Part shown: positions 11,234-64,000 of the stretch, piece after piece
Layout: each line of letters opens with the position of its first letter
Position numbering within the stretch: position 1 is the first letter of the stretch
NCBI GenBank assembly: GCA_020137815.1
Contig: CM035355.1
Span: 5,828,001-5,892,000 of the forward strand
DNA from: Hormiphora californensis
Taxonomy: Eukaryota > Animalia > Ctenophora
Length of the DNA stretch: 64,000 nucleotides
Direction of reading: 5' to 3'
Notes under the pieces: model-generated
The model's input: the letters and a program-made list of their open reading frames with translations, nothing else
Database searches by the model: none
What the model was told of the DNA's origin: nothing
Position numbers and translations under genes: made by a program

Positions 11234-11354
11234 ATAAATTCAACTCTCTTCTACATAAATCAACTGACAGGTTCCACATCACCACACACAAGTTGCGATG
11301 TAAAACCTGTCACTCGATTTCCCCGGACTGCTCTCCCATTCTAATAATACAGAT

Positions 11355-11463
11355 CAGGAACCGACCGAAACAAGTAAACAACCAATCAGAACTCGTTATT
11401 TAGGTCACGTGACTGGTTATCAGCCAATCAGGGACCAGTATTTCCTGATTCGGTCGGTTCCTA
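11355..11463 (+). mobile_element. 109-bp MITE, copy 2
   Basis: Near-identical to 851-959. Confidence 0.9.
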
Positions 11464-11880: not shown

Positions 11881-13103
11881 CTACTGTCTAACGTAAAACA
11901 AATCCTGCTCTATAGGTTTTCCCACCCAACTACCGTATCCAGCCTCAGCCAAGCCATCGAAAACTCTCTTTTTTCGAAGTTGGTACACCTCTGCGTCTGC
12001 CTTGACAGCGTTGTAGTACTGTTCTTGGTATGGCGTACTCTTCGTAACGACAGAACACACTTCGTTAAATTTCCTAGAGGGGGAGAGAGGTGAGCGAGGT
12101 GAGAGAGAAGAGAGGGTAGGGTAAATAGAGGTGAGAGAGGTGAGAGAGAGAGGGCGGGTAAATTTAGTAACGATAGTTAAATGATCAGTTTTATAGGTAG
12201 TTAAATAGACAAGGGGTTTAAGAAAAAAATTTGTGATAGAAAATATGGCATACGAAAATGCAGACAACCACTATCTTTCAAGATGCGATACAATTCTAGA
12301 ACATCTGATTCGATGAAATCTAATTCTAGGAAATCAGAAGACAAGTATGTTTTGTAAACTCTAAACTTACTTAAAAAGAGATTTTTTGGACAGTCTACTT
12401 GGTTCTCCATTTGTCTTCAATCCCACGCTTGTTTTGATGACTTCGGTGGCTGTTTCACCGAGAATCCAATCTTTAGCGTAGTCTAAGAATATGGTGGTGT
12501 TAGCATTTCAAACTTTTAAAAATCACTTAACAAATTAATTTTATTAATGTTTTACTCTAATAATAGGTGTCATAAAATATTAGAACTTGTTAAGGGTAAA
12601 ACACATGTTAGAGACAGATGGAATTGTAACTGGTATTTGTGATTGGTAGTTACTTACTGCAGGATTTACAGGGTACTCGGTGCTCCTGCGGTGATACAGG
12701 CAGGATCAGTAGATCAGAGGGAGATGCACCAGGAGAGGCAGTTGACTGGAGGAGAGATGAAATTGTGAAATTGGAACACAACTGTTTAGTATACATATTG
12801 TTGGAAAAAAGTTAGAATAATCAACTCAATTGAACTCAAAGATAGTTCCATCACTGTAGGCTAGTTCTCGGCTAATAACGCTGATTATATCTCACCTCAC
12901 CTCTAGATACAAGTGCCGAGACCCCCAACCCCGGTTCCCCCACCCCTGCTCACCTCAACTCTAGATACGAGTGCCCGTTGGATGTGGGCCTTATGGAAGA
13001 GTCCACCTATAACAACAGACTTGAGGAAGACAGGCTGGATGAAGTGGGAGAGCATGGCTCCCTGGACCCCAACAGCGTTCCATATAGCCATCTGAAAAGA
13101 GCA

Positions 13104-13191
<88 letters not shown>

Positions 13192-16100
13192 TCAGAGAGA
13201 GAAAGATCAGAGAGACAGAGAGAAAGAGAACATACCTTGTCACTGCAGGACATGGTACAAAGTCTCTCCCCCGCCATTATCCCATCCCATGTTTGATGCG
13301 AAGATTCTCTATTGCTCACTGGTATCGTCCCCTCGCCACACTCGATCTTACTTCTCAGTACACCTCTGCTTAGCTGCTGAAATAGATTCAATGTTAAAAT
13401 ATGAAACGATAAAACGATAAAAATATGAAAAGATGAAACGATAAAAATATGAAAAGATGAAAATATTAAAAGATGACAGGATAAGGTTTGAGAGTGCTTG
13501 CCCTATCTCTTGTTATTATGTCCCTATTACAGGGTAAAGAATTTAAATAATAAAACTTGATTGTGAAAGATGTGGTAATCTCTGAATAGTTTGTAGTCTC
13601 TCGAAGGTTTTTAATTTGTCAGATCGCTATCTTGACAGATTCTTATCAAACTTGAAATTTTGAGGGGCCAGTAACTGTAACTTGTCACTAACACTTCACA
13701 GTTTGTATAGTCTAGACAGCAGCACAAGTTGTTATCTTGATAGTTGTTTATTTTGACAGTTTGCTGTTAGCACTGGTTCTTATCTGGACAGTTTGGAGGG
13801 AAACTGCACCAAATTTGGGTTGTCTGCTTGAAAATAAGAGATTGTATCCAGATTCAAATTTAAGATCCACAGATAACGCTAAATATCTCCAGATAACACT
13901 AACTCAGATAAAAACTAAATATTGTTGGCGTGAATTGATGGTGGGTTGTGTTCTATTTGTATTTTATCATAAATTCATTTACCCGGAAACAGTACTGAGG
14001 TACATAATTTGACTCGAATTGCAGTCTTGATTAATTACATCATAACATTCATTTGGAACATACGTTCAACCGAATAATGCTCGAACAGCTGGCAGTGAAG
14101 ACCGAGCGGCTGGTGAAAGGAGCGGCTGGTGAAGCGAAGTATTCCTACTTAAACGAACGAGGAGTGCATCCCCATTACCTTATACACACCTGTAATAATT
14201 AAATAGGCCACCAACCACCCAAATCGTAACAGCACCCTTGAAAAAGCTATGTACAAGCCAGTAGATCAACCCGATTACGTATCCTTAACAGACAAGTGAT
14301 GCGTTCCCTCACTGACGTTCCCGATATGAAGGCAGAACTATTTCAATCACAATATACCTAAAAATACTCTGCACTCCTTCAAACTCTTTATCTTGCTGCA
14401 GACAATATTACCCCTTCTACATATAACATGTTTTCTCCACAGCCGGTATTGAAAAGGCATTACATGACCTCAATCCCTCCTCCAGACGCAGCAATGACAG
14501 ACAAACCTCAGCCGGCCCACCAGGAGATATTTCTGATGTAAGTAATTGACTTGGAATCCGCAATCAAACACGGTCTGATTCTATAACGACAAATTTAAAT
14601 TTAAATAAACACATAACAGTGGTGCTCCGTCATATTGGCCTCCCGCATAAAGCGTCGCCCAAAGCGTTGTCCGTCAAAAACGCACTTCGCTGATATTGAA
14701 AGCGTTTTTGCACGTTTTGGACGTCGTGGACAACGCTTTGGGCGACGCTGTTCACGGAGCACTACTGTAATAAAATATGTATGTAAACACAAACACCAAA
14801 TAAATAGTCTCTGCTAGTATTATAGATGGCACTCTAGAAGATGATGATCTGGCTCTCTTTCGTATAGTCCTCTTGCAGTACATGGGAGCCAGTCGCTTTG
14901 CCAGTCACCAGTCTATTGGTCACCGATCCATCGGTCACTGCCAGCTGTTTGAGCATGATTCGGTTGAACTTAAACTGTTCCAAATAATAGTAAAAGAAAT
15001 GGGTGATGTAATTTCTAAGACTGATTAAATTCGAGTCAAATAATGAATATATTGTATCCCTGTAACGTTCCCGGGTGAATGAAAATAATAAGATATGAAA
15101 GTAACAATGTCTCCAGATGAAACTAAATATATTCCAACATAACAACCTGGTTACTGCCCGTGCCATCCTCTGTCTCACTGTTTCCACAGTAGATCCTGGC
15201 ATCCCCACAGGGGGCAGTGGAGATGTACAGATGGAAGGACAAGCCTGGGAGGAGGTGGTGGGGTTAAATAAAGGGACTTTGATGATTAAGGACAGGCCTG
15301 GGAGGTGGTGGTGGGTGTTGTGGGATGATGTGATTGAGCAATGTTTAAAAAAAATTGTGATGGTCGAATTTATAATATTAGTATCCCTTTACATATTAAC
15401 TAATACAAGCCCCTGAGATGTTTGAATAATCTAGAATAATAGCCGTGCTAAATAACCGAATATAGTAGTAACCGGTGGTGAATTTTACACATACGACCGC
15501 ATCATAATATGTAGTACAGTACTGAGTTTGGTTACTTAGCTACCCCTAGTTACCCCTGGTTACCTGGTTGCACCGTCAGCAAGAAGGGAGGGTCAGGAGA
15601 TTTAACCAGAATACTAGTTTCCCTACTATGAAACCTTTTCACTTGTTCCAGAAGGAACCTTTTAAAGGCTCGTCTGGCAAGGACCTCGGCATGGCAGTCG
15701 TTAACAACGTTGCCAGAGGTACTCAGATTCTCTCCGTCTATACACTTGGTACCAGTACTGAGAACCAGGACTTGGAGGTCGTCCGAGCCTGATACATCCG
15801 ACTGAAGGGAGATAGGTTGCGAGTTATATCCGACTGAAGGGAGAGAAGTTGTGAGTTTCATCCGACTAAAGGGAGGAGTTTCTCTTTCTATCTCGAATTT
15901 CCAAACCATATCAACAGACAAGTACTACAGTGTGAGCTAGAAAGTGAAGTTTTCCAAGGACTCTGGACATCAGGAACCGACCGACACAAGTAAACAACCA
16001 ATCAGAACTCGTTATTTAGGTCACGTGACTGGTTATCAGCCAATCAGGGACCAGTATTTCCTGATTCGGTCGGTTCCTGCAATATACCTTGTCAGATTTC

Positions 16101-19100
16101 CGGACCAGAATCCCTGCTAGAACCTTTCTCTTTATCTCGTGCTCCAACAGCCCTTCCGTCAACTGTGGGATGTGGGGTTGTTATGTTCTAACCCTCCTTT
16201 CCAATAACTGGGGACGCGGCGAGAGAGGGTCGAGCAAGGCAAGGGTTTATTCTGTAATACTTATCTTTTTACAATCAAATTCAGATATTTTCATAGATCT
16301 GTTTACTGCAGAATTACCTTTTCATATTTTTGTTTCACAAGGTTTGAAACAGCACGAGCAAATGCCAGCTCATCGGTAGAGTAATCTTCAGCCTTCCAAC
16401 TCTGACTCTGTAAATAAGATTTTAGTTGTTTAATCCTATACCTCACAGCTCATAAAATGAGCCATGACTCATGAAATCAATATGTAACAATGAAAATTAG
16501 TTGTTGGATTGCCCTCTCCAAACCGGGCAGTGTGCGAGACCTATAACAGTCATAGTGTATAGTATGACAACATGCCCCGGGAATCCCCACCCTGCACCAC
16601 TTACCAGTGCGGTAGTGCTGTGCTCAGTGTGTCCCAACTTCTCTTGTAAGACCTGTAGGGCCGCATTTAGTTTGGCACCTTTCTTGGTTGTCCCAGTCGC
16701 TACCCACTCTTCCTTTTTGATTGTCAGGGTGGCCTCAAACTTCTTACTGTGGTCCGGATTGTTAGGCACCTAACGGGAGAGAGTTGGTGAGAGATTGTTA
16801 TTTAAGTAATTTAATATTTATATCGCTCTCGAGTACACATAGTATACTATTACTAGTTGTTAATCAATCGATTGTCGATTCATCCACATGAGAACGTCGA
16901 ACTAAATTCTGGTAGGGTAAAATAATACGCGGAGTGAGCTGAACAAACCTCCATGATTTTCAAAGTAGGATGGAATATTTGGTTCACTAGTGCCAGGGCA
17001 TTCATCTTGCTCTCCGGGTCTGCTTTTTCAAGTAGAGTTTTAGCATCTATTACTGGGTCCGATATCCCATTAGTTCCATTCACGCCATTGGTCAACTTCT
17101 TTCGGCCATTTCCTGCAGATAAACACTGTTATAGTATCATGTGGTAATCATGAGCCAGTTATCAGCAGAGGGAGACCTACAAAGTAGAAACAATAATATC
17201 CTGGTAACTCTATCAGTGGAAAGAGTCTTAATAAACTAAAACTATTTGAATCTGGGTCTACCAAGATGTAAACAAACAAAAGCTATGAGTGTCTGAAGAA
17301 GTAGATACTATCCCTACCAGGAACCGACCGACACAAGTAAACAACCAATCAGAATTCGTTATTTAGGTCACGTGACTGGTTATCAGCCAATCAGGGACCA
17401 GTATTTCCTGATTCGGTCGGTTCCTGATTCCTACCTTTAGAGTGTTCACCAACATAACCCTGAACATCCTTCAGCTCAGGGGCAGGGGGTATCAGGAACC
17501 TTCTAATATCCTCCCTGCAAGACTCCAGTTTAGCTATTAGAAACTGGGCAGCAGCAGCACGGGCATCCTTCACTTTCCTTCCACCACCTGTAGTTACTTG
17601 GTGAAGTATTGACTTGGGGTAATGACGTAACGTCGTGAAGTATTGATACGCGCTAATGATATCATTTAACAAGTCATAGTAATAACTATGACAGAATATT
17701 AATTATTGTATCTACTATTGTATATTTTCGGTTGAACAGAGCTACAGATATGATTATCATTATAAATGGGACGTTAAGATTACCAATGTAAATTTCTGGT
17801 ACATGTTCACCTTTCCCTATGTATGTCACGTTGTCAATGGTAACGGAGCAGGATACTTCAAAGTTGGATATCCGCATCTTGGGTCCGAGTTGTTGGAAGG
17901 AGAAATGGTTCTGTTTAAATACTGGCAGTGGTATCAGTGCTTTCTGGCAGAATTCCTAAAAAATTGTTATTTTCAGAAAGGCTGCATCGTAAAGGCCATA
18001 TTAGGTGTTATAAACTGCTGTATAATATAGTGCATTATATTCATTTATTAATCATTATTAATACTATTCATGATTGTACCATTAATATTTAGACTCAAGA
18101 ACCCCAATTTATTAGCGAATATAATGATATCATGATAAGATATCATGAATATTTTGGCACAAAACCCCCAATTTACCTGCACAAGAGAGATGGGATGTTT
18201 CGAATTCATGATATCAAAAAGGGGTCCATGGTGGGGTATAGTTGGCACAGGCTCCTTCTTTACTGCAGATGGTTTCTTTGTCTTCTTCTTCTTCAAAACT
18301 CCCTCTTCATCTTCCTTCTTCATTGGTTTCAGTGGGCCATCCTCTTCTGTCAAATTCTCCAGAATTATCAGCATCTTCGCTGCTGCACTCACCTTGGCGG
18401 CTTTTTTATTTAACGCTAAGTAGAGTTTGTGTTAGCTTCAAGTTGTTATATAATGGAGAGTATGTGAGTGAGTCAGTTTACAACAGACAGTGCAGATGAA
18501 ATGTCGCAGATCCGAAGTGTATCACTACAGAGTGGACCATAAATTCTGAGGCCGGGGGACGATCAGGAATAGCTCCAAAAAGGTGATATAGTTGTACAGT
18601 AACTGTGTGTGTGTGTGTGTTTGTGTCACTATCACCATTGGAACATTGAATCATACCCTGTCCAGTAGTTTCAGATTGTCCCAGGATAAGTCGACAGTTG
18701 AACAATCCATTCACAATATCTTCCTCGTACACAGGCTTCAAACTATTCTTACTACAGTACTCCTGCACAGTCGACACAGGGTTCTGCTGTCTCTCTGCTA
18801 TCTTATCTAGCTCTGTCTTGTTTGATGCGATAACAGGTGAACGGCCACACAGTGCATCAAGCAGCCGGCATGCAGAATTCGCTTTAGCCTCCTTTTTGGA
18901 TGTCCCAAAACCTAGTATTAATTAGAAAAAGGGGGAGTTAATTAGATTAGGTAACCATGTGAGTGGCAACCAATTAAATTCATCTCCATCCGGCATCCCC
19001 CGTTCATCTTACCTCTATAAAGGTGCAGAGGTCACACAAACCCACGGCTACAAGGCTTTAAATGGTTACCCAAACTAACTACTAATTGTACTACTAACTA

Positions 19101-34146: not shown

Positions 34147-34255
34147 CAGGAACCGACCGAAACAAGTAAACAACCAATCAGAACTCGTCATTTAGGTCAC
34201 GTGATTGGTGATCAGCCAATCAGGGACCAGTATTTCCTGATTCGGTCGGTTCCTG
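34147..34255 (+). mobile_element. 109-bp MITE, copy 5
   Basis: Near-identical to the other copies. Confidence 0.9.
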
Positions 34256-37400: not shown

Positions 37401-40400
37401 AAAACGACGGTCCTTTCCATACAAGCAGAGCATAGCGCGTTACTGCAATATCTTTTACCGGGAGGCAATGCAAGAGGAATTTTTTAAATCACCATGTTTG
37501 GATCCGAGATTGGGTTTGGGCTTTGGAAGTACATTGGAACAATATGAGGTACCAAAGTTTTGGACGAACCTGTTGCGTGAGGTGGGTAAGGGCTGAAAGA
37601 GCCACATAATGTTCAATAAGAAGCTGTCGTTCATCCGCGTCCCAAATTTGTACTATCAACTCTGAGGAAATACATGAACTGTTGAAAAGAAAGGGAAATG
37701 TACTAATAATAGGCACCATGAATAAAGACTAAAGAGAGAGGTGTTCTAAATTGTGGCGTTTTTTTCTTTGTAAGATACGAGCCGTGTCCCATAGAATTCT
37801 AGCCATTACCTTGGCCGGTAATCCGAAACTGACAGTCATCTCGGTTTACTCGCCCACTGAGTGTGCGAATGTAGAAGAAGTTGAAAAATTTCACCACGAT
37901 CTCAGGGACTACATCAATACTGTTCCAGCTCATAACCTCCTTGTCGTTGCCGGAGATTTTAACGCCAGAATTGGCTGGGAGGACTCTGGCTTCGGGTGGT
38001 ATTTACATCAACATACCAGTAGAAATGGAGAGCTGCTCCAGGAGACAGCTGAGGAGACCAGATTGGAAATAGCCAACGTTAGGTTTCGGAAGAACAAGGG
38101 AAGACTCTGGACTTTTCTATCGGACGGTACTGGACGGAAGGCTACACTGGATTACATTCTCGTTCGTCGGAAATGGAGAAACAGTATTAAGGATGTGGAC
38201 ACGTCCGGGGCACTAAGCTCGATCGGGTCGGACCATCGACTTCTGGTGGCCAGGGTTAAGGTCACTCTCAGGAAGAGGAAACTAGCCCCGGGTCGCCCCA
38301 ATCTGGATTATAGTGCTCTGAAGAAGGACCCTGATCTACAGGAGAGATTCTCGGTGGAAGTGAGGAATCGATTTGCTGCCCTTTCTTCTGCTGACTGTGC
38401 AGATGCCTCTGAAAAGTATGGAGACCTGATACAGGCGGTTGAAGAAACTAGCAAGAAACTACTAGGAAAGAAGAGGAAAAGGCTTAAGGATATTGTGGCT
38501 GAGGACTTCCGGGTGAAGAGGGCAAGAGACGATCTTGAGTCTGCCACTGCTAGGTACCACACCTCACCTTCAGAAGAAACACGTTCCACTGTAAATGAAG
38601 GAAAAGAGGCACTCACGGAAGCGTACCTGGCCGTCGAGGAAGAGCATCTCGATAGGAAAATCAAGAGTGTAGAGAGAGCCACTCGGAACGCGAAGACGAA
38701 GGAATCATGGAGGCTAGTAAACGAAATCTCTGGGAGGAAGGACAAACACCCCATCCAAATTGAAGGAGCGTCCCCAGATGATCGGAAAGCCAAATGGTTC
38801 AGCCACTTCCAGTCGCTCCTCGGGACAGAACCACCGGATGAAGTAGATCAAGACATCCCGGAAGTGTTTCCCCGAGCAGATATCTACGACGGCCCCTTTA
38901 CTGAAGAGGAATTCAAGAAGGCGAAGGATCGGATAAAGGAGGATAAGGCCTACGGAAATGATGCCATCGCACCCGAGATCTTGAAGCGATGTGACATTGA
39001 TGACCTCGTGCTTACCTTTTGCAACGATGCCTTGAGCGGAAATGGAATTCCGGAACAGTGGACTCTGAGTAATATTGTCCCTGTCCCGAAAAAGGGCGAC
39101 CTCTCTCAACCCGGAAACTATAGGGGCATTTCACTTACTTCTATAGTTGCCAAAACCATGAACCGTATGCTTCTTCACCGGATACGGCCTTACATCGAGA
39201 CTGTTTTACTCGATTCCCAGAACGGTTTTAGGGAGGAGCGGTCCACAGGTGAGCCACATCCTCACCATTAGGAGACTCATCGAAGGAGCTACTGCCAAAC
39301 AACTACCACTGGCAGTAGCCTTCTTGGATTTTGTTAAAGCCTTCGACTCCATTAACCGGAAGCGCATGATCAAAGTACTCAGGGCTTATGGCATCCCAGG
39401 GAAGATCGTCGACCTCATCCAGTGGATGTACAGTAATACAAGAGCTCAGGTCCTCACTCCAGACGGCCTCACGGATATATTTGAAATAGTTGCCGGGGTG
39501 TTGCAAGGAGATACTCTAGCGCCCTACCTATTTATAATCGTGCTTGATTATTGTATGCGAACAGCACTGGAGAGGCACCCTGATATAGGATTCACACTGA
39601 AGCCAGCCCGGAGTAGAAGAGTACGAGCGGAGAGGGTTACTGACACAGACTTTGCTGATGATGTAGCTCTCCTAGCTGACTCAGTGGAAGATCTTGGCGT
39701 TATCATGCGGGAGGTAGAGAGTGTCTGTAAGGAGGTGGGTCTCGAGATAAACCGGGCGAAGACAGAGTTCATGGTTGAGGGTATACCAGACCCCGGTCCT
39801 CTCCACAGCATCGATGGCACTAGGATAAAGTTGAGCGAGGACTTTAAATATCTTGGATCATGGGTAAGGGACTCTAAAAGGGACATTAAGGTTAGGAAGG
39901 CTAAGGCATGGAATGCGTGTCACGGGCTTAGGACTGTTTGGAATTCAAAGCCGAGCGACAAGATCAAGGCCAGACTCTTTGTAGCAACGGTTGAAACAGT
40001 CCTTTTGTACGGGTGCGAAAGCTGGACGCTCACCAAAGACATGGAAAGGAGTCTTAACGGTACCTACACGAGGATGCTACGGATGGCACTAAATAAAAAC
40101 CAGTATCTCCTTCAAATGAGCAATGCCACGCTGTACGGTATCGGAAATCTACCTATCCTTAGCACCAAAATAGCGGAAAGGAGACTCCGACTAGCCGGTC
40201 ACGCTGTGCGTCATCCTGAACTTACGCTCAACAAGGTCATACTCTGGGAGCCTCTCCATGGAAATTCCAGGCGAGGGCGACCAAAACAGACCTTTGTGGA
40301 TGTACTCAGGCGGGACACGGGACTCAGGGAGACCTCCGAGATAGCTACTGTTATGTCTGATCGTGACGGGTGGAGAAGTGTTATTCATGGAGTTCGGAAA

Positions 40401-41749
40401 TACCACACGTGGAATCCGCCCTAAGTCAAGTAAGTCAAGTAAGTCAATATAAATGGTCATTTCTCAAAAACATATCCTCCTTTGTTTGTTTGTTTGTTTG
40501 TTTGTTTGTTTGTTTGTTTGTTTGTTTGTTTGTTTGTTTGTTTGTTTGTTTGTATCTCACCTTTATCACATTGTATATCCTGGGGTGTATTCTGGAACGT
40601 CCACCGTGGGTACGCTGATGGGCTGTGAACATGACTCAGATAGACAGGGGATCTCGTCTCAGCGCTGACAAGAGCTACCTGAGTCTGGCACACCTGTCGC
40701 AGATTTTTAACCTGTAACCCTTGCAGGTGCCTCACTCGAAACTGAAAGGAGGTTGGGAGGTTTTATAAAGTTTTCTGTTCAGTTTGGTGACTCAACCCCA
40801 CGAGAATTAATCACTGAGCGATAACGCTATTCCCAGTGCCCCGATATTGCAAACCCGTGTAATTTTTTGAGCAAATATTTGCAGCCTGACTGATTTTTTG
40901 CAGCCTAAATAAAATAACCTCGACTGATATTGCAGCCCGGGCTGCAGAAAATATAAGTATGAAATATAAGCTTCCCCAAATCACATGGGTTTAATATCCC
41001 GTATTGGCTAACAGTGCTAATAAGGCGTCCCAGAATGGTGTCACATATCCATCCCCCTCATTAGAGTATGAAATACATATGTATTTCGGTGTCGAGATTC
41101 TTGCAGCCCGGCTGCAGAAAATTTCGAGGAAATTTTCCCATTCTGGGCTGCACGATGATTTTGCTAATTAGGCGTCCCCTGTCAGACCAATGCTCTAACA
41201 GGGCGTCCCAGAATGGTGTCACATATCCATCCCCCTCATTAGAGTATGAAATACATATGTATTTCGGTGTCGAGATCCTTGCAGCCCGGCTGCAGAAAAT
41301 TTTGAGGAAATTTTCCCATTCTGGGCTGCACGATGATTTTGCCCCGAAAGTGGTACTTTTTTTCTCTATTAGCCCAACTTCTACGATGCTGACGTACGTC
41401 GCGAGGTCGAGGCTGCGTAGCAGCCGAGACCGAGCAAAAATTTGCAGCCTAGCGAATAGAATCTTGCAGCCTAGCTGAAGGCTTAGAAAAATATTTTTTT
41501 AGATTTCTGAAATTCGGGGCACTGGGACGCTATTATAGGGAAGGCAATGGCCATGACGGTGGGTTAAGTAGTGACAGGAACCGACCGAAACAAGTAAACA
41601 ACCAATCAGAAATCGTTATTTAGGTCACGTGACTGGTTATCAGCCAATCAGGGACCAGTATTTCCTGATTCGGTGAGTTAAGTAGTGAGTTAAGTAGTAG
41701 TAACCTGTTGTGTAGAAAGTGAGAAGGCATGGTTTTTGCTGTAGTTCAT
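34420..41749 (-). CDS. UVRAG: UVRAG/Vps38 (PI3K complex II subunit); C-terminal exons uncertain
   Basis: LSTQQ|FRVRHLQGLQVKNL (compare LPSQQRRLRHLRNIAARNI); ELIVQIWDADERQLLIEHYVALSALTHLTQQ; NTVIYQISDGLF; coiled coil ending RRQSLLGQLGGIFEI; PLYTRGKDRSYFSYGVFLLYRNIVQLRNHCGL. Confidence 0.88.
37771..40447 (+). mobile_element. RTE-clade LINE, 5'-truncated inside the APE domain, antisense in a UVRAG intron
   Basis: APE motifs VYSPT, AGDFNARIG, LDYIL, SDHRLL; RT motifs NYRGISL, FLDFVKAFDS, GVLQGDTLAPYLF, FADD, FKYLG; RGRP C-terminus; (TAAGTCAAG)n tail; one +1 frameshift near 39248. Confidence 0.95.
40481..40552. repeat. (TTTG)n microsatellite
   Basis: Direct observation. Confidence 0.95.
40832..41526. 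mobile_element. MITE with 8-bp TSD (hAT-like) and an internal duplication of about 140 bp
   Basis: TIR cccagtgccccga; TSD ACGCTATT on both sides. Confidence 0.85.
41575..41674 (+). mobile_element. 109-bp MITE, copy 6 (3' end truncated)
   Basis: Same sequence; flanked by gttaagtagtga repeats. Confidence 0.85.
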
Positions 41750-47802: not shown

Positions 47803-57253
<9,451 letters not shown>

Positions 57254-58005: not shown

Positions 58006-61000
58006 CTAGAACTCGTCCCGGTTGCTACGTTGTGCTGCTGCTGCACCTCCCCCCGGTGCCACTTTTATCACAAAAGGAGAGGAGGGTGCCGGGTGGATTG
58101 GCCGGGTGAACCGGGGTACAAACTTAACAGCCGGCTGATCATCTTCTACCCTGCGAGTATTAGTAATCCTCAGCACAGCTCTCTCCGGACTGAGATGTCG
58201 AGCTATGGCAGGAGGGGAGATGAGATCAGGGTGGGGAGGGGAGGGTGGAGCGGCGGGAGGAGGAGCAGGCTTCTCAAAAAACATTCTCTCATCGGGCCAG
58301 ATTATCTTCCCTGGTTTGGTAGGTTCATCATCGGGTGATGAAATGATGATAAGATCGGGATTATCAGATCCTGATGATGTGATTGAGGTGGCGGAGATAT
58401 TAAGAGTTCCTTTCTGCCCGCTGGGAATACGATCACGATCCAAGTCGTCCCCTGGAGTCATATCAGTGGTTTCTGGAGTCATGCTGGTGGTTCCTGGGGT
58501 CATATCAGTGGTTTCTGGAGCCATGCTGGTGGTTCCTGGAGTCATATCAGTGGTTTCTGGAGTTAGGGCCATATCGGGTGGTGTGGTATTGTATTGGCAA
58601 GGTGGTGTGTCAGTAATCTGGGGAGGGGATCTATTATTATCAGGTGATACAAGAGACATATCTTCAATGTTATAATTTGTAGTCCCCAACAAGTTATCTG
58701 GAGTGTTGTTGGATTTAGCACGAGAGTGATTTGGAGATTGGGGCATCTGATCGGTAGATGAGCGAGATTGGGAGTTAGGAGGTGAGAATGAGGTTCTAAC
58801 ATTGTCTCCTCCAGGTGAAGATGGTTTTATCACGGGTTCTGGGGCATGTCTCACTACACCACCCGAGCCATGGATCTCTTTCACAGGTGCTATAGTAGCA
58901 GGCGATGGCTTGTTGCCTGTTGAAGGTTTGTTTCTTCGTCTCAGGACGTCCTCCAGAACAGCACGAACCCGATCAGAACTCTTCATTTTACCCTCCTGTT
59001 GAGGCTTGTTGGTGATGTCTGGAACCCCCTCAGATATTGATCCGGGGTTCATCAACTTTGTAGTATCCATAGTTACTGATTTAGTGACAGGATTTGTTTC
59101 TCTCGTGGTGGTGGCGGTTTGAACTTCCTGACTTTCTGAAGGAATCCGATTCCTAACTGGGGGTGTAACTGAGGGTGTAACTGATGGGCCGGTAATGGAT
59201 TTGATAGTTCCGGTAGGTGATGTTTGGCGAACAGCAGGGACGGTTACAGTGGTAACCGATCTCATGGCGGGAGTTGTGGTTTGCATAGCAACGGGAGTTG
59301 TGGTTTGCATAGCAACGGGAGTTGTGGTTTGCATAGCAACGGGAGTTATAGATCGCATAGCAACGGGAGTTATAGATCGCTTAGTATTGGGAGTTATGGA
59401 TCGCTTAGTATCGGGAGTTATGGATCGCTTAGCAACGGGAGTTATGGATCGCTTAGCAACGGGAGTTGTGGATCGCTTAGCAATGGGAGTTGTGGATCGC
59501 TTAGCAACGGGAGTTATGGATCGCTGAGTAACGGGAGCAGGTGAAATGGACCTCTTAGCCTCACCGGAAATACATCTCAATCGGTCTTGTTGTGACAGTC
59601 TGGTCACAGTGGTGATTCTGGTACCGCTTCCTTCCCTACTCCTAATCTGGTCTGCAGAAGAGTGGTGGGATCCTGGAGATGGGGAGTGGGAGGAGTGGGA
59701 TCCTGGGGAGTGGTGGTGTATATTTGGTCCACCTGAAAGATGCCTAATTCGGGGATTAACCGGAACCACCCTGGAAGAAACAGCAGTTTGAGCGGACACC
59801 ACAAATGTCGAACTCAAAGTGCCCTCTTCTCGCATCACAGCGGAGGATGGTTGGGTGATGGTTGGAAGATTCTCCGGGGAGATAAGATCATTATCTACCA
59901 TTGGTCGGTCGGAATAGCTCAGACTGGAAACATCAGGATTTGACCTTTGACTATGACTCTTATTTCCTGTTTTGAGGTTGGTGTTGCCCTTGAAATATCG
60001 ACTACAGATATCTTTAACTTTGGCCCTCTTTTCCTCATTAGAAGTTTCCCTCTTTCGATCACCACTTTCACTAAACTCCACATCATTCATGATTTCCGAC
60101 TTTGATATTTTCTCACGAGACACATCATCCTCCTCCAATCCTGATACAGCACGAGAAACAATGCCCTCCTCAAGTCCTGATGTAGGAGGAGAAACAACAT
60201 CTAACCCTGATACAGGATAAGATACAACATCCAACCCAGATATTATCTGAGTACAAGATCCACCCTCTTGGGGGCTGCATGCCGTTATCTCGCACTCACT
60301 AGCAACTGACATGACATGATAAGTCACGTGCCCAATCGTCTCACCCTCATACTCTGTTTGGATACCTTTACTCTCCGTATCGTTATCATCCGTCTGTGCA
60401 CTTCTACTCTCCTTCTTCTCCTTCCCTCCCTCACCACCAATATTAACCTGCCTCAGCGCTGAAACCAAAATGGTGCTGAGAGGGTGACGCTTGGAGTAAC
60501 CATGGTCGCTGTCAATAGAGAGGACAAGTTTAACTAACCCTCCGGGTCCTGATACCACGTTTTGTTGGGTCTCTCCCGGTGGTGTTTGTGTGTCAGCATC
60601 TCGAAGAAGAACTCTTTGGATTAGAGGTGTTGCTGGGGCACTGGGAACAGCAGCAGGAGGTGGAGTGGAAGGAGGATGAGGAACAGCGGAGGTGGACCTA
60701 CTGCGGGGAGAAGAGTAGGAGCTGGACTTGCCGTGACCACCCTCGCTGGACCTACCGTGGCCACCCTCCTCAGAGAGGTTGCTAAGGTTGTGGTTACTAT
60801 GGATACTATGGTTACTATGGTTACTAATGTTGTGGTGGTCAATCATGCCCGTTGTAGAGAACAGATCTCGGCAACTCTCGTTCAAACTGTCATTAAGAAG
60901 GGTCTCATTGATTATTTTGGTAGAATTAGGAGGAGGTGGAGGGGCGTCAAAGAGAGGTTCCTGAGGATCACCAAACATACCAATTGGGTCGTTTCCAAAA

Positions 61001-63076
61001 TTGGATTCACTAAACTCCCCATCTCTCCCACTAATATCCTCGTCGTGGTTTGCTGTCATGGTATCCTGAGAGACTCGTCTTGACTGTGCGATACAAGATG
61101 AGAATTGCTGTTGCTGACCCTCCCTAAACATGCTGTGGTTTGTATGGGGTGTCACAGCTTCTGCCCGGGATCGCTTCGAGAACAACAACTCAGATATATC
61201 TGATGAGGATCGCTTTACAGAGCTAACCCCGAGATGTGGCACTGCCGGTGTCTTGAGGAACGATTTTGTGAATGATGTGTTGAGGTTGGTACTGCTTGTA
61301 TTGTGATGTGAGGGTGTGTTGTCTCCCTCACCTCCACCACCAAATAGAGCATCAACGGGATTGTGGTCAGGAAGGGCTGGTGGTGGTACTGTCGTCCGGG
61401 CCCACGATGGAACCTGACATGAAGTTTCATATAAAACATCAAGACTGAAGGCCAATGTAAAACATCGAGACTGAAGAGTGAAGAAATAAAAGCGAATTTT
61501 GGTGGGTTTAACTCACGTTTTGGGGTCCTCTCAGTACATTATCTAGTACTTCTTTTGGGTTGCGACCTGGAAGAGATGTCACAGTGTTACAGATGTCACA
61601 GTGAGCTGTTGTCAATTGAAGGTCATCTTTTGGGGTACACGACCCGGGTATGACCTGAGGTCATTGACCTCCCTTGGTGGGGCTAACTTGTGCGGAAGGT
61701 GTTGAACATAATTCTACCTTCATGTGACCCATATTGAGCTGGACAACCAAACAATTATAGCATGAGACCAGTTGGAAATATATAAGAAGGTTCTTGTCTG
61801 TTCGGAAAGCCCTAAAATTAGCAGATTATAGAATCATAGGTGCAAGAACCTGTAGCAAAGTGGGCTAACATCGTGCGCGCAGGTTCAAATGCTCAGATGA
61901 AAGTGCTCGAAGAGACGCTTGTGACATGAAAATGTCACGGCGCGTTACATGCAACCTACAATATATTCGCCACCGGTTTGCAAAAGTGGCAAAAACTGGG
62001 GTGGGGAAGGGCAAGCCACATCTCCTTTTAAGTGATAAAACGGTATCAGAACTCACCAATGGCATTGGATTGTTGTGGAGGGGACATGTTAACAAACTGG
62101 TGTCGTATTCCACCCGCGTTACTCCCCTTTTGTTGTTCAGGCTTGGGTGGCAACACTCCTGGGAATTGGGATGAGAGATCAACAACTTTTGAGAAGACTG
62201 AATGTTCAAAGATTTGAGAGACAGTTTTCCCGCGAGGGTTGAACTGTTCGTACTGTCTCCGCGATTTCAACAAAAGAAACATGGGACGAACTGAACTCCA
62301 GGGAGCATGCGAGGTTTCCAAACAAATGTCAGCAGGATATAACACTGTTATCCTACTGACATTTGTAGTTAACTGTTATCATAGCAGTAATACTCACTTT
62401 GAGAATTGCGAGGATTACTGTTGGCTGCAGATACCGTTCTCATTGAAACAATATCAAGACTCTGGCGCCGTCCCATTAACTGGATATCACGGGAGCGGTT
62501 CCTTTCGAAAAACTCCTGGTTTTGGATTAGGGTGGGTAAAAGAATGGAACATTAGAATAGTTGAATCAATAAGTTGACCAATCGGCTGTTTTTGAGTCGC
62601 ATAGTTTTGATACAATGAAATAGTGTTTATTTAGGACTGTAGACGACTCGGAGATTTATTTCAGGAAAGATAATACGGGACGGTTTCGACGTTTAACGTC
62701 ATCATCAGCTCAAATTAATTTGTTTAAAGTAGTGTTGAAAAGTTTCAAACTTTTCAACACTACTTTAAACAAATTAATTTGAGCTGATGATGACGTTAAA
62801 CGTCGAAACCGTCCCGTATTATCTTTCCTGAAATAAATCTCCGAGTCGTCTACAGTCCTAAATAAACACTATTTCATTGTATTAGAATAGTTAGGAGCCA
62901 GGTTTAGTGATGGAGCGAATCCCACACTTGGGCAAATCGAGTGGATTATTAGGACCGAAACTAGAATTAGAACTAGGATAATTTTGCTACTTAATAATCA
63001 GAATTAATATTACCTTTCTCCTCTTCCCTTCCTCGCTGTCTTTCATCCTATTCCTTGCTCCTCCCATCCAATTCAT
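58006..63076 (-). CDS. REDIC1: REDIC1/C12orf40 (DUF4552)-like protein, 5 exons, about 1330 aa with a long S/T/P-rich tail
   Basis: MNWMGGARNRMKDSEEGKRRK|EFFERNR...SLDIVSM matches the MNWxGGxRxR...KEfFEK...SLDll signature (from memory); phase-consistent exons lead into the 1149-aa ORF. Confidence 0.75.
59270..59560 (-). repeat. 24-bp coding tandem repeat (KRSITPVA-type, about 11 units)
   Basis: Seen in DNA and protein; a second 21/42-bp repeat at about 58450-58570. Confidence 0.9.
62741..62783 (+). other. Ctenophore spliced-leader exon sequence (retro-copied, not an SL RNA gene); mirrored on the minus strand
   Basis: AGTTTCAAACTTTTCAACACTACTTTAAACAAATTAATTTGAG matches the Pleurobrachia/Hormiphora SL as recalled; followed by CTG rather than a GT donor. 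Confidence 0.88.
62784..62819 (+). ncRNA. Minimal type-I hammerhead ribozyme core (mirror copy at 62673-62708, minus strand)
   Basis: CUGAUGA-U-stem II (GACGU uaa ACGUC)-GAAAC-C-GUC; 5' strand of stem I absent. Confidence 0.7.
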
Positions 63077-63303
63077 GGCTTCAATTATTATAACACCAGG
63101 GTTAAAACTATAAACTTGATTAATAGTGGGTTTGTTCTTATCAAATTTATGTGTCCGTTCTCAGTTCTGACGTTTATCACACATATATCACAGTCTAACG
63201 AATTAACCACCTGTACAGTATTGTTTGAATATTTAAAAGAAAGAGAGAGTCTGGGCGAGCCTCCAGAGATTTCGACTATTCCAGTCATATTATATGTCAC
63301 AAA

Positions 63304-64000
63304 ATGTTCACTATTCTTCTTTTTGTTTCAAGTCTAACAGCTGTTACTGCCAATGTTCAACAATTCGAATGGGAGCCCTGGGGCAAGACAGACTGCAGTT
63401 TCGAACTGGATCTCATCAACAGTCTTAACACAGTGAGTCAGGAGCAGAAGGAAAACTACCGAACAACTCTGACTGAGATTCGACAAAGTAACAAGTTTAC
63501 ATTTGCCAACAGTACACAACTTCTTCGTTACCCAAAATCTGGATTCCTCTTCGAGGTGTTCTGGATACGAACAGAGAAGGGCAGGTTTGATCTACTTGAG
63601 ACCTGTGAGAGGTTTATCAATAGTCTACCCAAGCACGATCCGGATCTTTACTGCCTTACAAATAAGTCGGAGGACGATGTGCTGAGTGTGTGCATGATGC
63701 CCAGCCGGAACTGGCGAGATGATTGTGAGGAATTCTCTTTCAAGAATATTTACAAGGAAGGAGAAGGGAGTAAGGCACTGGAAAATCTGGCTAGGGCCAA
63801 GATAAGAAATGGCTTTAAGGAAGGAACGTGGATTGGTAAAATGATGCACATTTTCAGGATGCAGAAACTCCGTAACAAATGGTGGTATTTTCAAACATGT
63901 TCCGGTATAGGCAGCACCGACCGAATGTTCTCCAAATGTACTAATTTCTCAAAAAATGTCACCAGAAACTTCAAAACGGGGAAGCAGCTCCATGGCCATC
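63304..64000 (+). CDS. Putative secreted glycoprotein of unknown family, open to the window end (at least 232 codons)
   Basis: Stop-free frame MFTILLFVSSLTAVTA|NVQQFEWEPWGKTDC...; signal-peptide-like start; NST, NKS, NFS and NVT sequons; 7 Cys; missing from the ORF track because it has no stop. Confidence 0.75.
   Translation, partial: MFTILLFVSSLTAVTANVQQFEWEPWGKTDCSFELDLINSLNTVSQEQKENYRTTLTEIRQSNKFTFANSTQLLRYPKSGFLFEVFWIRTEKGRFDLLETCERFINSLPKHDPDLYCLTNKSEDDVLSVCMMPSRNWRDDCEEFSFKNIYKEGEGSKALENLARAKIRNGFKEGTWIGKMMHIFRMQKLRNKWWYFQTCSGIGSTDRMFSKCTNFSKNVTRNFKTGKQLHGH

Follow-up and report, generated by a model that had tools for sequence, protein, structure and literature searches.

A predicted intron of a ctenophore gene contains a short insertion in which the host spliced leader (SL) runs directly into the core of a hammerhead ribozyme, and this arrangement occurs twice, head to head. 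The question raised by this locus is how a host leader came to stand, in DNA, at the head of a ribozyme-bearing unit. The unit consists of SL, hammerhead core and tail and is non-coding, and the account favored here, which is fairly likely, is that the enzyme of a Penelope-like element (PLE) reverse-transcribed a sense RNA to which the SL had been trans-spliced. The locus lies in a 64-kb stretch of DNA, here called the window, and the features discussed are collected in Table 1.

The insert occupies 62563-62880 of the window sequence (318 bp) and is flanked by a 12-bp target-site duplication (TSD), whose match by chance has a probability of about 8e-8 for a given pair. Its two arms, 62610-62745 and 62747-62882, form a perfect inverted pair of 136 bp each around the single centre base C at 62746, the last 2 nt of the right arm being common to the right TSD. 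CTGATGA begins at 62784, abutting the SL without a spacer, and the GTC closing the core ends at 62813. The tailed arm extends 146 nt from the start of CUGAUGA and the untailed arm 97 nt, an end that would mark a second start of reverse transcription. The coordinates given in the first-pass annotation for a 318-bp intronic insertion with a 12-bp TSD, perfect 136-bp arms and a one-sided 47-nt tail are correct, and the order it described, SL, CTGATGA without a spacer and then about 70 nt with AATAAA, is read directly in the window. Its statement that each arm carries the SL holds as to the presence of the leader, but not as to a whole leader in each arm, as the two heads overlap by 11 nt at the centre. 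Across both strands of the 64-kb window, the pattern of core, stem II and GAAA occurs in these two arms only. The longest reading frame in the insert has 15 codons, and the insert shows no evident promoter. A 3' hairpin was considered but is not supported: its stability does not exceed that of shuffled sequences (z -0.73), and the excess of variable places that are unpaired (7 of 9, against 64% expected) is not significant.

Table 1. Features of the insertion, its host intron and a dispersed repeat in the window
Feature	Position	Strand	Remarks
Predicted host intron 1	63013-62516	-	498 nt, GT-AG; 168 nt without the insertion
Left target-site duplication (TSD)	62551-62562		12 bp, ATTAGAATAGTT, begins ATT
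PLE-type 3' tail	62563-62609	-	47 nt, one arm only; 49 nt if the 2 shared nt are target
Inverted arm	62610-62745	-	SL nt 7-43, hammerhead core, 3' region
SL 5' end, head-to-head junction	62741-62751		11-nt near-palindrome; 62746 is the C of the SL on the + strand
43-nt ctenophore spliced leader (SL), probably complete	62741-62783	+	next letters CT, no GT donor
Minimal type I hammerhead core	62784-62813	+	helix I 5' strand replaced by SL
3' region	62814-62880	+	two AATAAA, at 62832 and 62861
Right TSD	62881-62892		12 bp, ATTAGAATAGTT; basis: window sequence alone
Repeat of about 110 bp, copies	851-959, 11348-11462, 15969-16079, 17318-17426, 34147-34255, 41575-41674, 48131-48239		

The intronic location proposed at first is borne out, yet on the minus strand, within an intron whose inferred gene model places flanking exons at 63014-63076 and 62515-62398. 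The signals of this intron are intact (donor GTAAT, branch-like CCCTAAT, acceptor CAG), and the insertion lies 35 nt from the acceptor. Similarity to organism B stops at 62519, beside the predicted exon edge (contig record 25), and Pfam returned zero matches for either short flanking exon. The predicted host gene also includes the open reading frame 58006-61512 on the minus strand, and its protein starts with MNWMGGAR, which resembles the N-terminal end of REDIC1 (C12orf40), a meiotic protein. Its pre-mRNA would hold a 136-bp perfect hairpin in intron 1. A host gene on the plus strand was dropped as a candidate, the plus-strand frame 63229-63999 having no Pfam match or longer homologue; this frame has a signal-peptide-like start and seemingly begins a separate gene divergent from the host gene.

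The 43-mer at the head of the unit had been taken for the ctenophore SL, an identification confirmed from two sides: its letters correspond to 43 of the 44 letters of the leader printed in the relevant part of PMC8527503, and all 43 are matched by the SL of a tandem SL RNA gene. This gene (loci L087/L088, with a 778-bp period and an SL followed by GTAAG) came to light when metagenome contigs were searched with 24 nt of the SL, which gave 121 loci; its upstream sequence could serve a study of the promoter. The letter before its 43-nt leader is a C, and the SL of the window is therefore probably complete. At the insertion the SL is followed by CT instead of the GT donor that marks an SL RNA gene. 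In 113 of the 121 loci the SL stands at a contig end before diverse sequence, and most of these look like mRNA starts; in the other 8 it is internal. The SL had no match in viral contigs. A passage of PMC8527503 counts 718 leader copies in that ctenophore genome, and the same source puts shared leader exons down to possible mis-mapping of reads.

The core comprises CUGAUGA, an extra U, a 5-bp helix II with G10.1-C11.1, GAAA, C-C-G and UC. Three marks of the minimal hammerheads of PLEs are named in a section of PMC4209133, namely an extra base before helix II, the pair G10.1-C11.1 and complementary 15.2/16.2; all three are present in the element, where the extra base lies between 9 and 10.1. 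Loop 3 is a single C and is not palindromic. Helix I is missing: the SL end and the bases after GUC pair at 3 of 8 positions, one of them adjacent to the core, and the helix was not recovered in folds of the monomer or the dimer. The Rfam scan yielded no hammerhead match, only miRNA-type hairpins below the gathering score, which were rejected as effects of the palindrome. The earlier claim of a hammerhead thus stands for the minimal core and falls short for helix I and the Rfam models. Because addition of the SL leaves helix I unpaired, the ribozyme is probably dead, and the SL-headed form is predicted to be inactive.

The distribution of the unit was followed in assembled contigs from four of 22 listed runs, X1 and X2 (organism A), X7 (organism B) and X15 (an RNA run, the one retained among the small-share runs X10-X22), which were aligned to the 777 bases 62000-62776 and gave 1478, 766, 1411 and 432 records, respectively. 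In X1 and X2 the flank has a depth of a few hundred and the element one of about 1e5; in X7 the corresponding values are tens and 7e4. Summed over the hammerhead bin, it exceeds the flank 351-fold in X1, 151-fold in X2 and 2498-fold in X7, ratios that are not copy numbers. In both organisms the element belongs to a multi-copy family, and the depth excess answers the concern that the sequence might be single-copy. A decayed copy of its 3' tail at 2889-2921 of the window (plus strand, local score 55, next best 34) implies that the family is old as well as recent. The hammerhead core had no match in the metagenome contigs, the prokaryote genomes and the 121 SL loci; like the viral contigs, these collections hold little ctenophore genomic DNA, and such negatives carry little weight. 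No reverse transcriptase or GIY-YIG frame was tied to the repeat in the same collections.

The left junction is documented beyond one assembly. One X1 contig (record 5) runs from unique flank 25 nt into the tail with zero differences at depth 110, and an X2 contig from another study (record 17) does the same at depth 446, on a haplotype with a 27-nt insertion at 62188; the 25 nt are fewer than the 31 letters required for bridging, and the source sample may itself be X1. A further X1 contig (record 6) leaves the window sequence exactly after 62562, with 9 differences and a depth of 171 against 110 for the filled allele. It has 66 further letters beyond this point and departs where an empty allele would; the X1 sample would then seem to carry both alleles, which makes the recent insertion first suggested plausible. 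Loose ends at 62562-62564 are found in 13+10 contigs of X1, 10+6 of X2 and 26 of X7, and the flanks at these tail ends are unlike one another, AT-rich, in low agreement and without poly(A). In four other types of joint, among 13 joints listed in all, SL nt 2-5 adjoin an inverted tailed copy that is shortened; the joints show no more than 20-32 nt of SL. These four types imply that head-to-head insertion at the SL start has occurred repeatedly.

The reading that the SL was added to RNA draws on what lies where the SL would have been joined. Five of the 32 listed pieces (of 4125) leave the alignment or stop at 62710, at the AG before the core, and such departures occur in three of the four runs (X1, X7 and X15). 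In X1, record 7 matches to 62710 and has 81 further letters beyond the alignment; as a single contig, it could be a chance truncation. Records 30 and 32 of X7 and record 9 of X15 end at 62710. An RNA contig over SL-CUGAUGA (X15 record 11, depth 8.5) starts at 62681, 30 nt before 62711, as fits a fork of a 31-mer graph at 62710, the word length being assumed. This contig is no proof of trans-splicing, because genomic SL-headed copies or DNA could give it. The putative non-SL form appears to keep the AG, and we read it as the expected source for trans-splicing. The first-pass proposal of an RNA trans-spliced and then reverse-transcribed agrees with the divergence of the non-SL form at the AG, and its RNA-level step is one that we infer.

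SL-headed retroelements of another kind were also recognized. Among 12 of the 121 SL loci that were examined closely, four (L028, L039, L042 and L064) carry a 40-43-nt SL after unrelated sequence, followed by a 5' UTR and an open frame of 426-473 codons with cysteine knuckles (zf-CCHC, E 0.062). A second, overlapping frame begins there and resembles an AP-type endonuclease (PF03372, E 0.024 over 43 aa, below the cut-off). The LINE-like frame has 36 homologues, on contigs of up to 5.9 kb. These four are likely full-length LINEs headed by the SL, and the unrelated flanks upstream of the leader suggest that the contigs are DNA. The SL is likewise internal and without a GT donor in L071, L081 and L085, and many of these seven loci have TT, TG or GT right after the leader. 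Contig loose ends in X1 and X7 show the SL followed by TTTTCCG, close to the start of L039. Together with the LINE-like loci, these ends imply that SL-headed retroelements are not confined to the hammerhead family; orphan SL copies, which the earlier annotation expected to be scattered through the genome, do head retroelements in ctenophore DNA. Within the window, a decayed orphan SL copy without a GT donor is present at 12506-12541 (plus strand, local score 51, next best 34). A LINE-like element with endonuclease and reverse transcriptase domains over two frames occupies 37733-40424 on the plus strand, with no SL found upstream. A dispersed repeat of about 110 bp has at least seven copies in the window and is also present in loci L005, L029 and L062.

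The same observations bear on whether the SL is added anew to RNA or was captured once. According to the latter explanation, which is rather unlikely, the leader has since been fixed in the DNA of a non-autonomous master element, whose spread depends on a PLE enzyme acting in trans and whose RNA arises by read-through and is either re-trans-spliced at the AG of the genomic SL or left unspliced. High copy depth combined with SL-headed joints at several loci would be expected from such a master, the U-rich SL end AATTTGAG resembles an acceptor, and the LINE-like copies with an SL head appear intact within the 1.5 kb that is visible. Against it, non-SL forms are seemingly present in both organisms and in the RNA run, as the fork at 62710 indicates, and the unit has no evident promoter. 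The depth of the tail, moreover, is 2.0-2.3 times that of the hammerhead in X1 and X2, as for 5'-truncated copies of a longer element.

A DNA-level origin of another kind would be site-specific insertion into an SL RNA gene where its exon ends, with transcription from the SL promoter and the SL joined in DNA. SLACS/CRE and NeSL elements insert site-specifically in SL RNA genes; such insertion would yield the same SL/element junction, and ctenophore SL genes are tandem and multi-copy, as the L087/L088 period illustrates. This explanation is very unlikely, however: sequences unrelated to one another, namely the hammerhead element and the 5' ends of at least four LINE-like copies, begin exactly after TTTGAG, the sequence upstream of the L087 leader is absent from L028, L039, L071, L081 and L085, and the putative non-SL form keeps its AG.

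Reverse transcription of an SL-trans-spliced RNA by a PLE enzyme remains the favored account, and known PLEs supply precedents for it. Parts of PMC11167929 describe a purified PLE protein that cuts and extends both target strands and prefers ATT, with two internal cDNA starts that bound the tail and no need for hammerhead cleavage in vitro. An inverted 5' copy with a tail of 30-40 bp and a hammerhead as a standard trait are given for PLEs in a section of PMC8557442, and a passage of PMC3846280 reports a rotifer PLE whose inverted pLTR overlaps the direct one by 15 bp and is 37 bp shorter. As far as these sections describe them, EN+ PLEs share with the element a head-to-head inverted repeat with a short palindromic overlap and a one-sided tail, a minimal hammerhead about 100-150 nt before the 3' end, an AT-rich target and a precise 3' end without poly(A). 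Their TSD is of similar size, 8-10 bp against 12 bp here; the element differs in its head of host SL, its lack of an ORF and its tail of 47-49 nt instead of the usual 30-40. The PLE-type anatomy first proposed fits in tail, head-to-head layout and minimal hammerhead; since no reverse transcriptase or GIY-YIG frame is tied to the repeat, PLE membership rests on this anatomy.

The proposed pathway would begin with a PLE repeat having an acceptor AG directly before CUGAUGA, at which the host would splice the SL. What lies upstream would be lost through trans-splicing, together with the helix I 5' strand, so that the RNA would not self-cleave. By analogy with PLE biochemistry, the enzyme would then nick both target strands 12 nt apart, and cDNA synthesis would begin at both nicks, on internal template positions that lie 146 and about 97 nt beyond CUGAUGA; two internal starts would account for the one-sided tail. 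Each arm end is joined to one end of a TSD beginning ATT. The SL opens with an 11-nt near-palindrome, which is precisely the segment in which its two heads overlap. Two cDNA ends complementary to the SL start can form 10 of 11 pairs, with a central G-G mismatch, so that both cDNAs, on reaching the SL 5' end, might anneal through this segment and be filled in, which would give perfect head-to-head arms and one unpaired centre base. If the enzyme bound its own SL-capped RNA, starts so close to the 5' end would yield a product with only SL, hammerhead and tail, twice. Snap-back of a single cDNA from the left nick and tail was rejected, as it would leave G and not C at 62746 (plus strand), and snap-back of the other cDNA alone cannot supply the tail. 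Without an ORF or an evident promoter, the product is probably a dead-end by-product. Pol II transcripts are already capped, and the idea that trans-splicing serves to gain a cap is not supported; its visible effect is loss of the outron and helix I. The label retrozyme was likewise abandoned, there being no tandem units and no helix I.

It is highly improbable that a genuine insertion with one arm was turned into a false palindrome by fold-back during library construction or assembly. In favor of such an artefact, the identity of the arms is 100%, the window sequence is the source for both the centre and the right junction, and the self-complementary SL 5' end could snap back in vitro. Against it, the insert is bounded by a 12-bp duplication and gives way to unique sequence on either side, the tail sets the arms apart, and the base at the centre is the one found in the SL; contigs assembled from short reads in two studies also contain asymmetric head-to-head joints of a similar kind.

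The individual traits of the SL-headed, PLE-type copy have precedents. The Penelope of D. virilis has an intron whose last base borders the 5' end of helix I (passage of PMC4209133); as proposed for the element, the acceptor lies at the 5' side of helix I, and spliced and unspliced RNA have different ribozymes. That case, as described there, involves cis-splicing with the intron-bearing form in the genome, whereas trans-splicing would have produced the form integrated here. Partial SLs beside LTR and LINE sequences at 597 flatworm loci have been proposed to be integrated trans-spliced RNAs (section of PMC12582326), and about 30% of Hydra TE Iso-Seq reads carry an SL (section of PMC12220107). 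Unlike the present case, these two passages name no PLE, hammerhead, junction mechanism or ctenophore. Non-LTR retrozymes, in the part of 10.64898/2026.07.22.740005 that treats them, resemble the element in being non-coding, derived from PLE repeats and equipped with a type I hammerhead; they are head-to-tail tandem units with complete hammerheads, in contrast to two units set head to head with helix I lost. Relics of an SL in dinoflagellate retrogenes (PMC12014239, PMC5585692) also illustrate how a genomic SL marks passage through RNA, but there host mRNAs were copied passively, whereas here the RNA of a mobile element itself would have been copied. Full-text literature searches listed no report of SL-headed PLEs or SL-headed ctenophore retroelements.

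The SL serves as a natural tag of RNA polarity and processing. A section of PMC3846280 proposes an antisense template for intron retention in PLEs without excluding a sense one, and leaves open whether head-to-head junctions and intron retention arise through antisense or unspliced sense RNA. EN+ PLEs, in the sections cited, keep introns, whereas this copy carries the mark of spliced sense RNA, and an SL-headed copy implies that a spliced sense template was needed at least once. The centre base and the tail fit the two-nick, two-start model that part of PMC11167929 derives in vitro. With this tag, genome data on hundreds of loci could be used to test which strand PLEs copy and how their junctions form. 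The tag also suggests where the 718 leader copies in the genome may come from and warns that SL counts are not equal to SL-gene counts.

A broader conclusion can be put forward only tentatively: ctenophore retroelements of two classes, PLE-type and LINE-like, may use SL trans-splicing as a standing 5'-end system, with every full-length copy headed by an SL. If this is true, the terminal AG of the SL would restore an acceptor, and copies that lack a promoter would acquire a new cap through read-through RNA of the host, in a manner comparable to the use of a ribozyme by R2. Splicing would switch the PLE hammerhead off, and the SL palindrome would seal head-to-head insertions. Such loci would provide an in vivo record of PLEs copying spliced sense RNA from both nicks, and most of the hundreds of SLs in the genome would belong to retroelement copies and not to SL genes.
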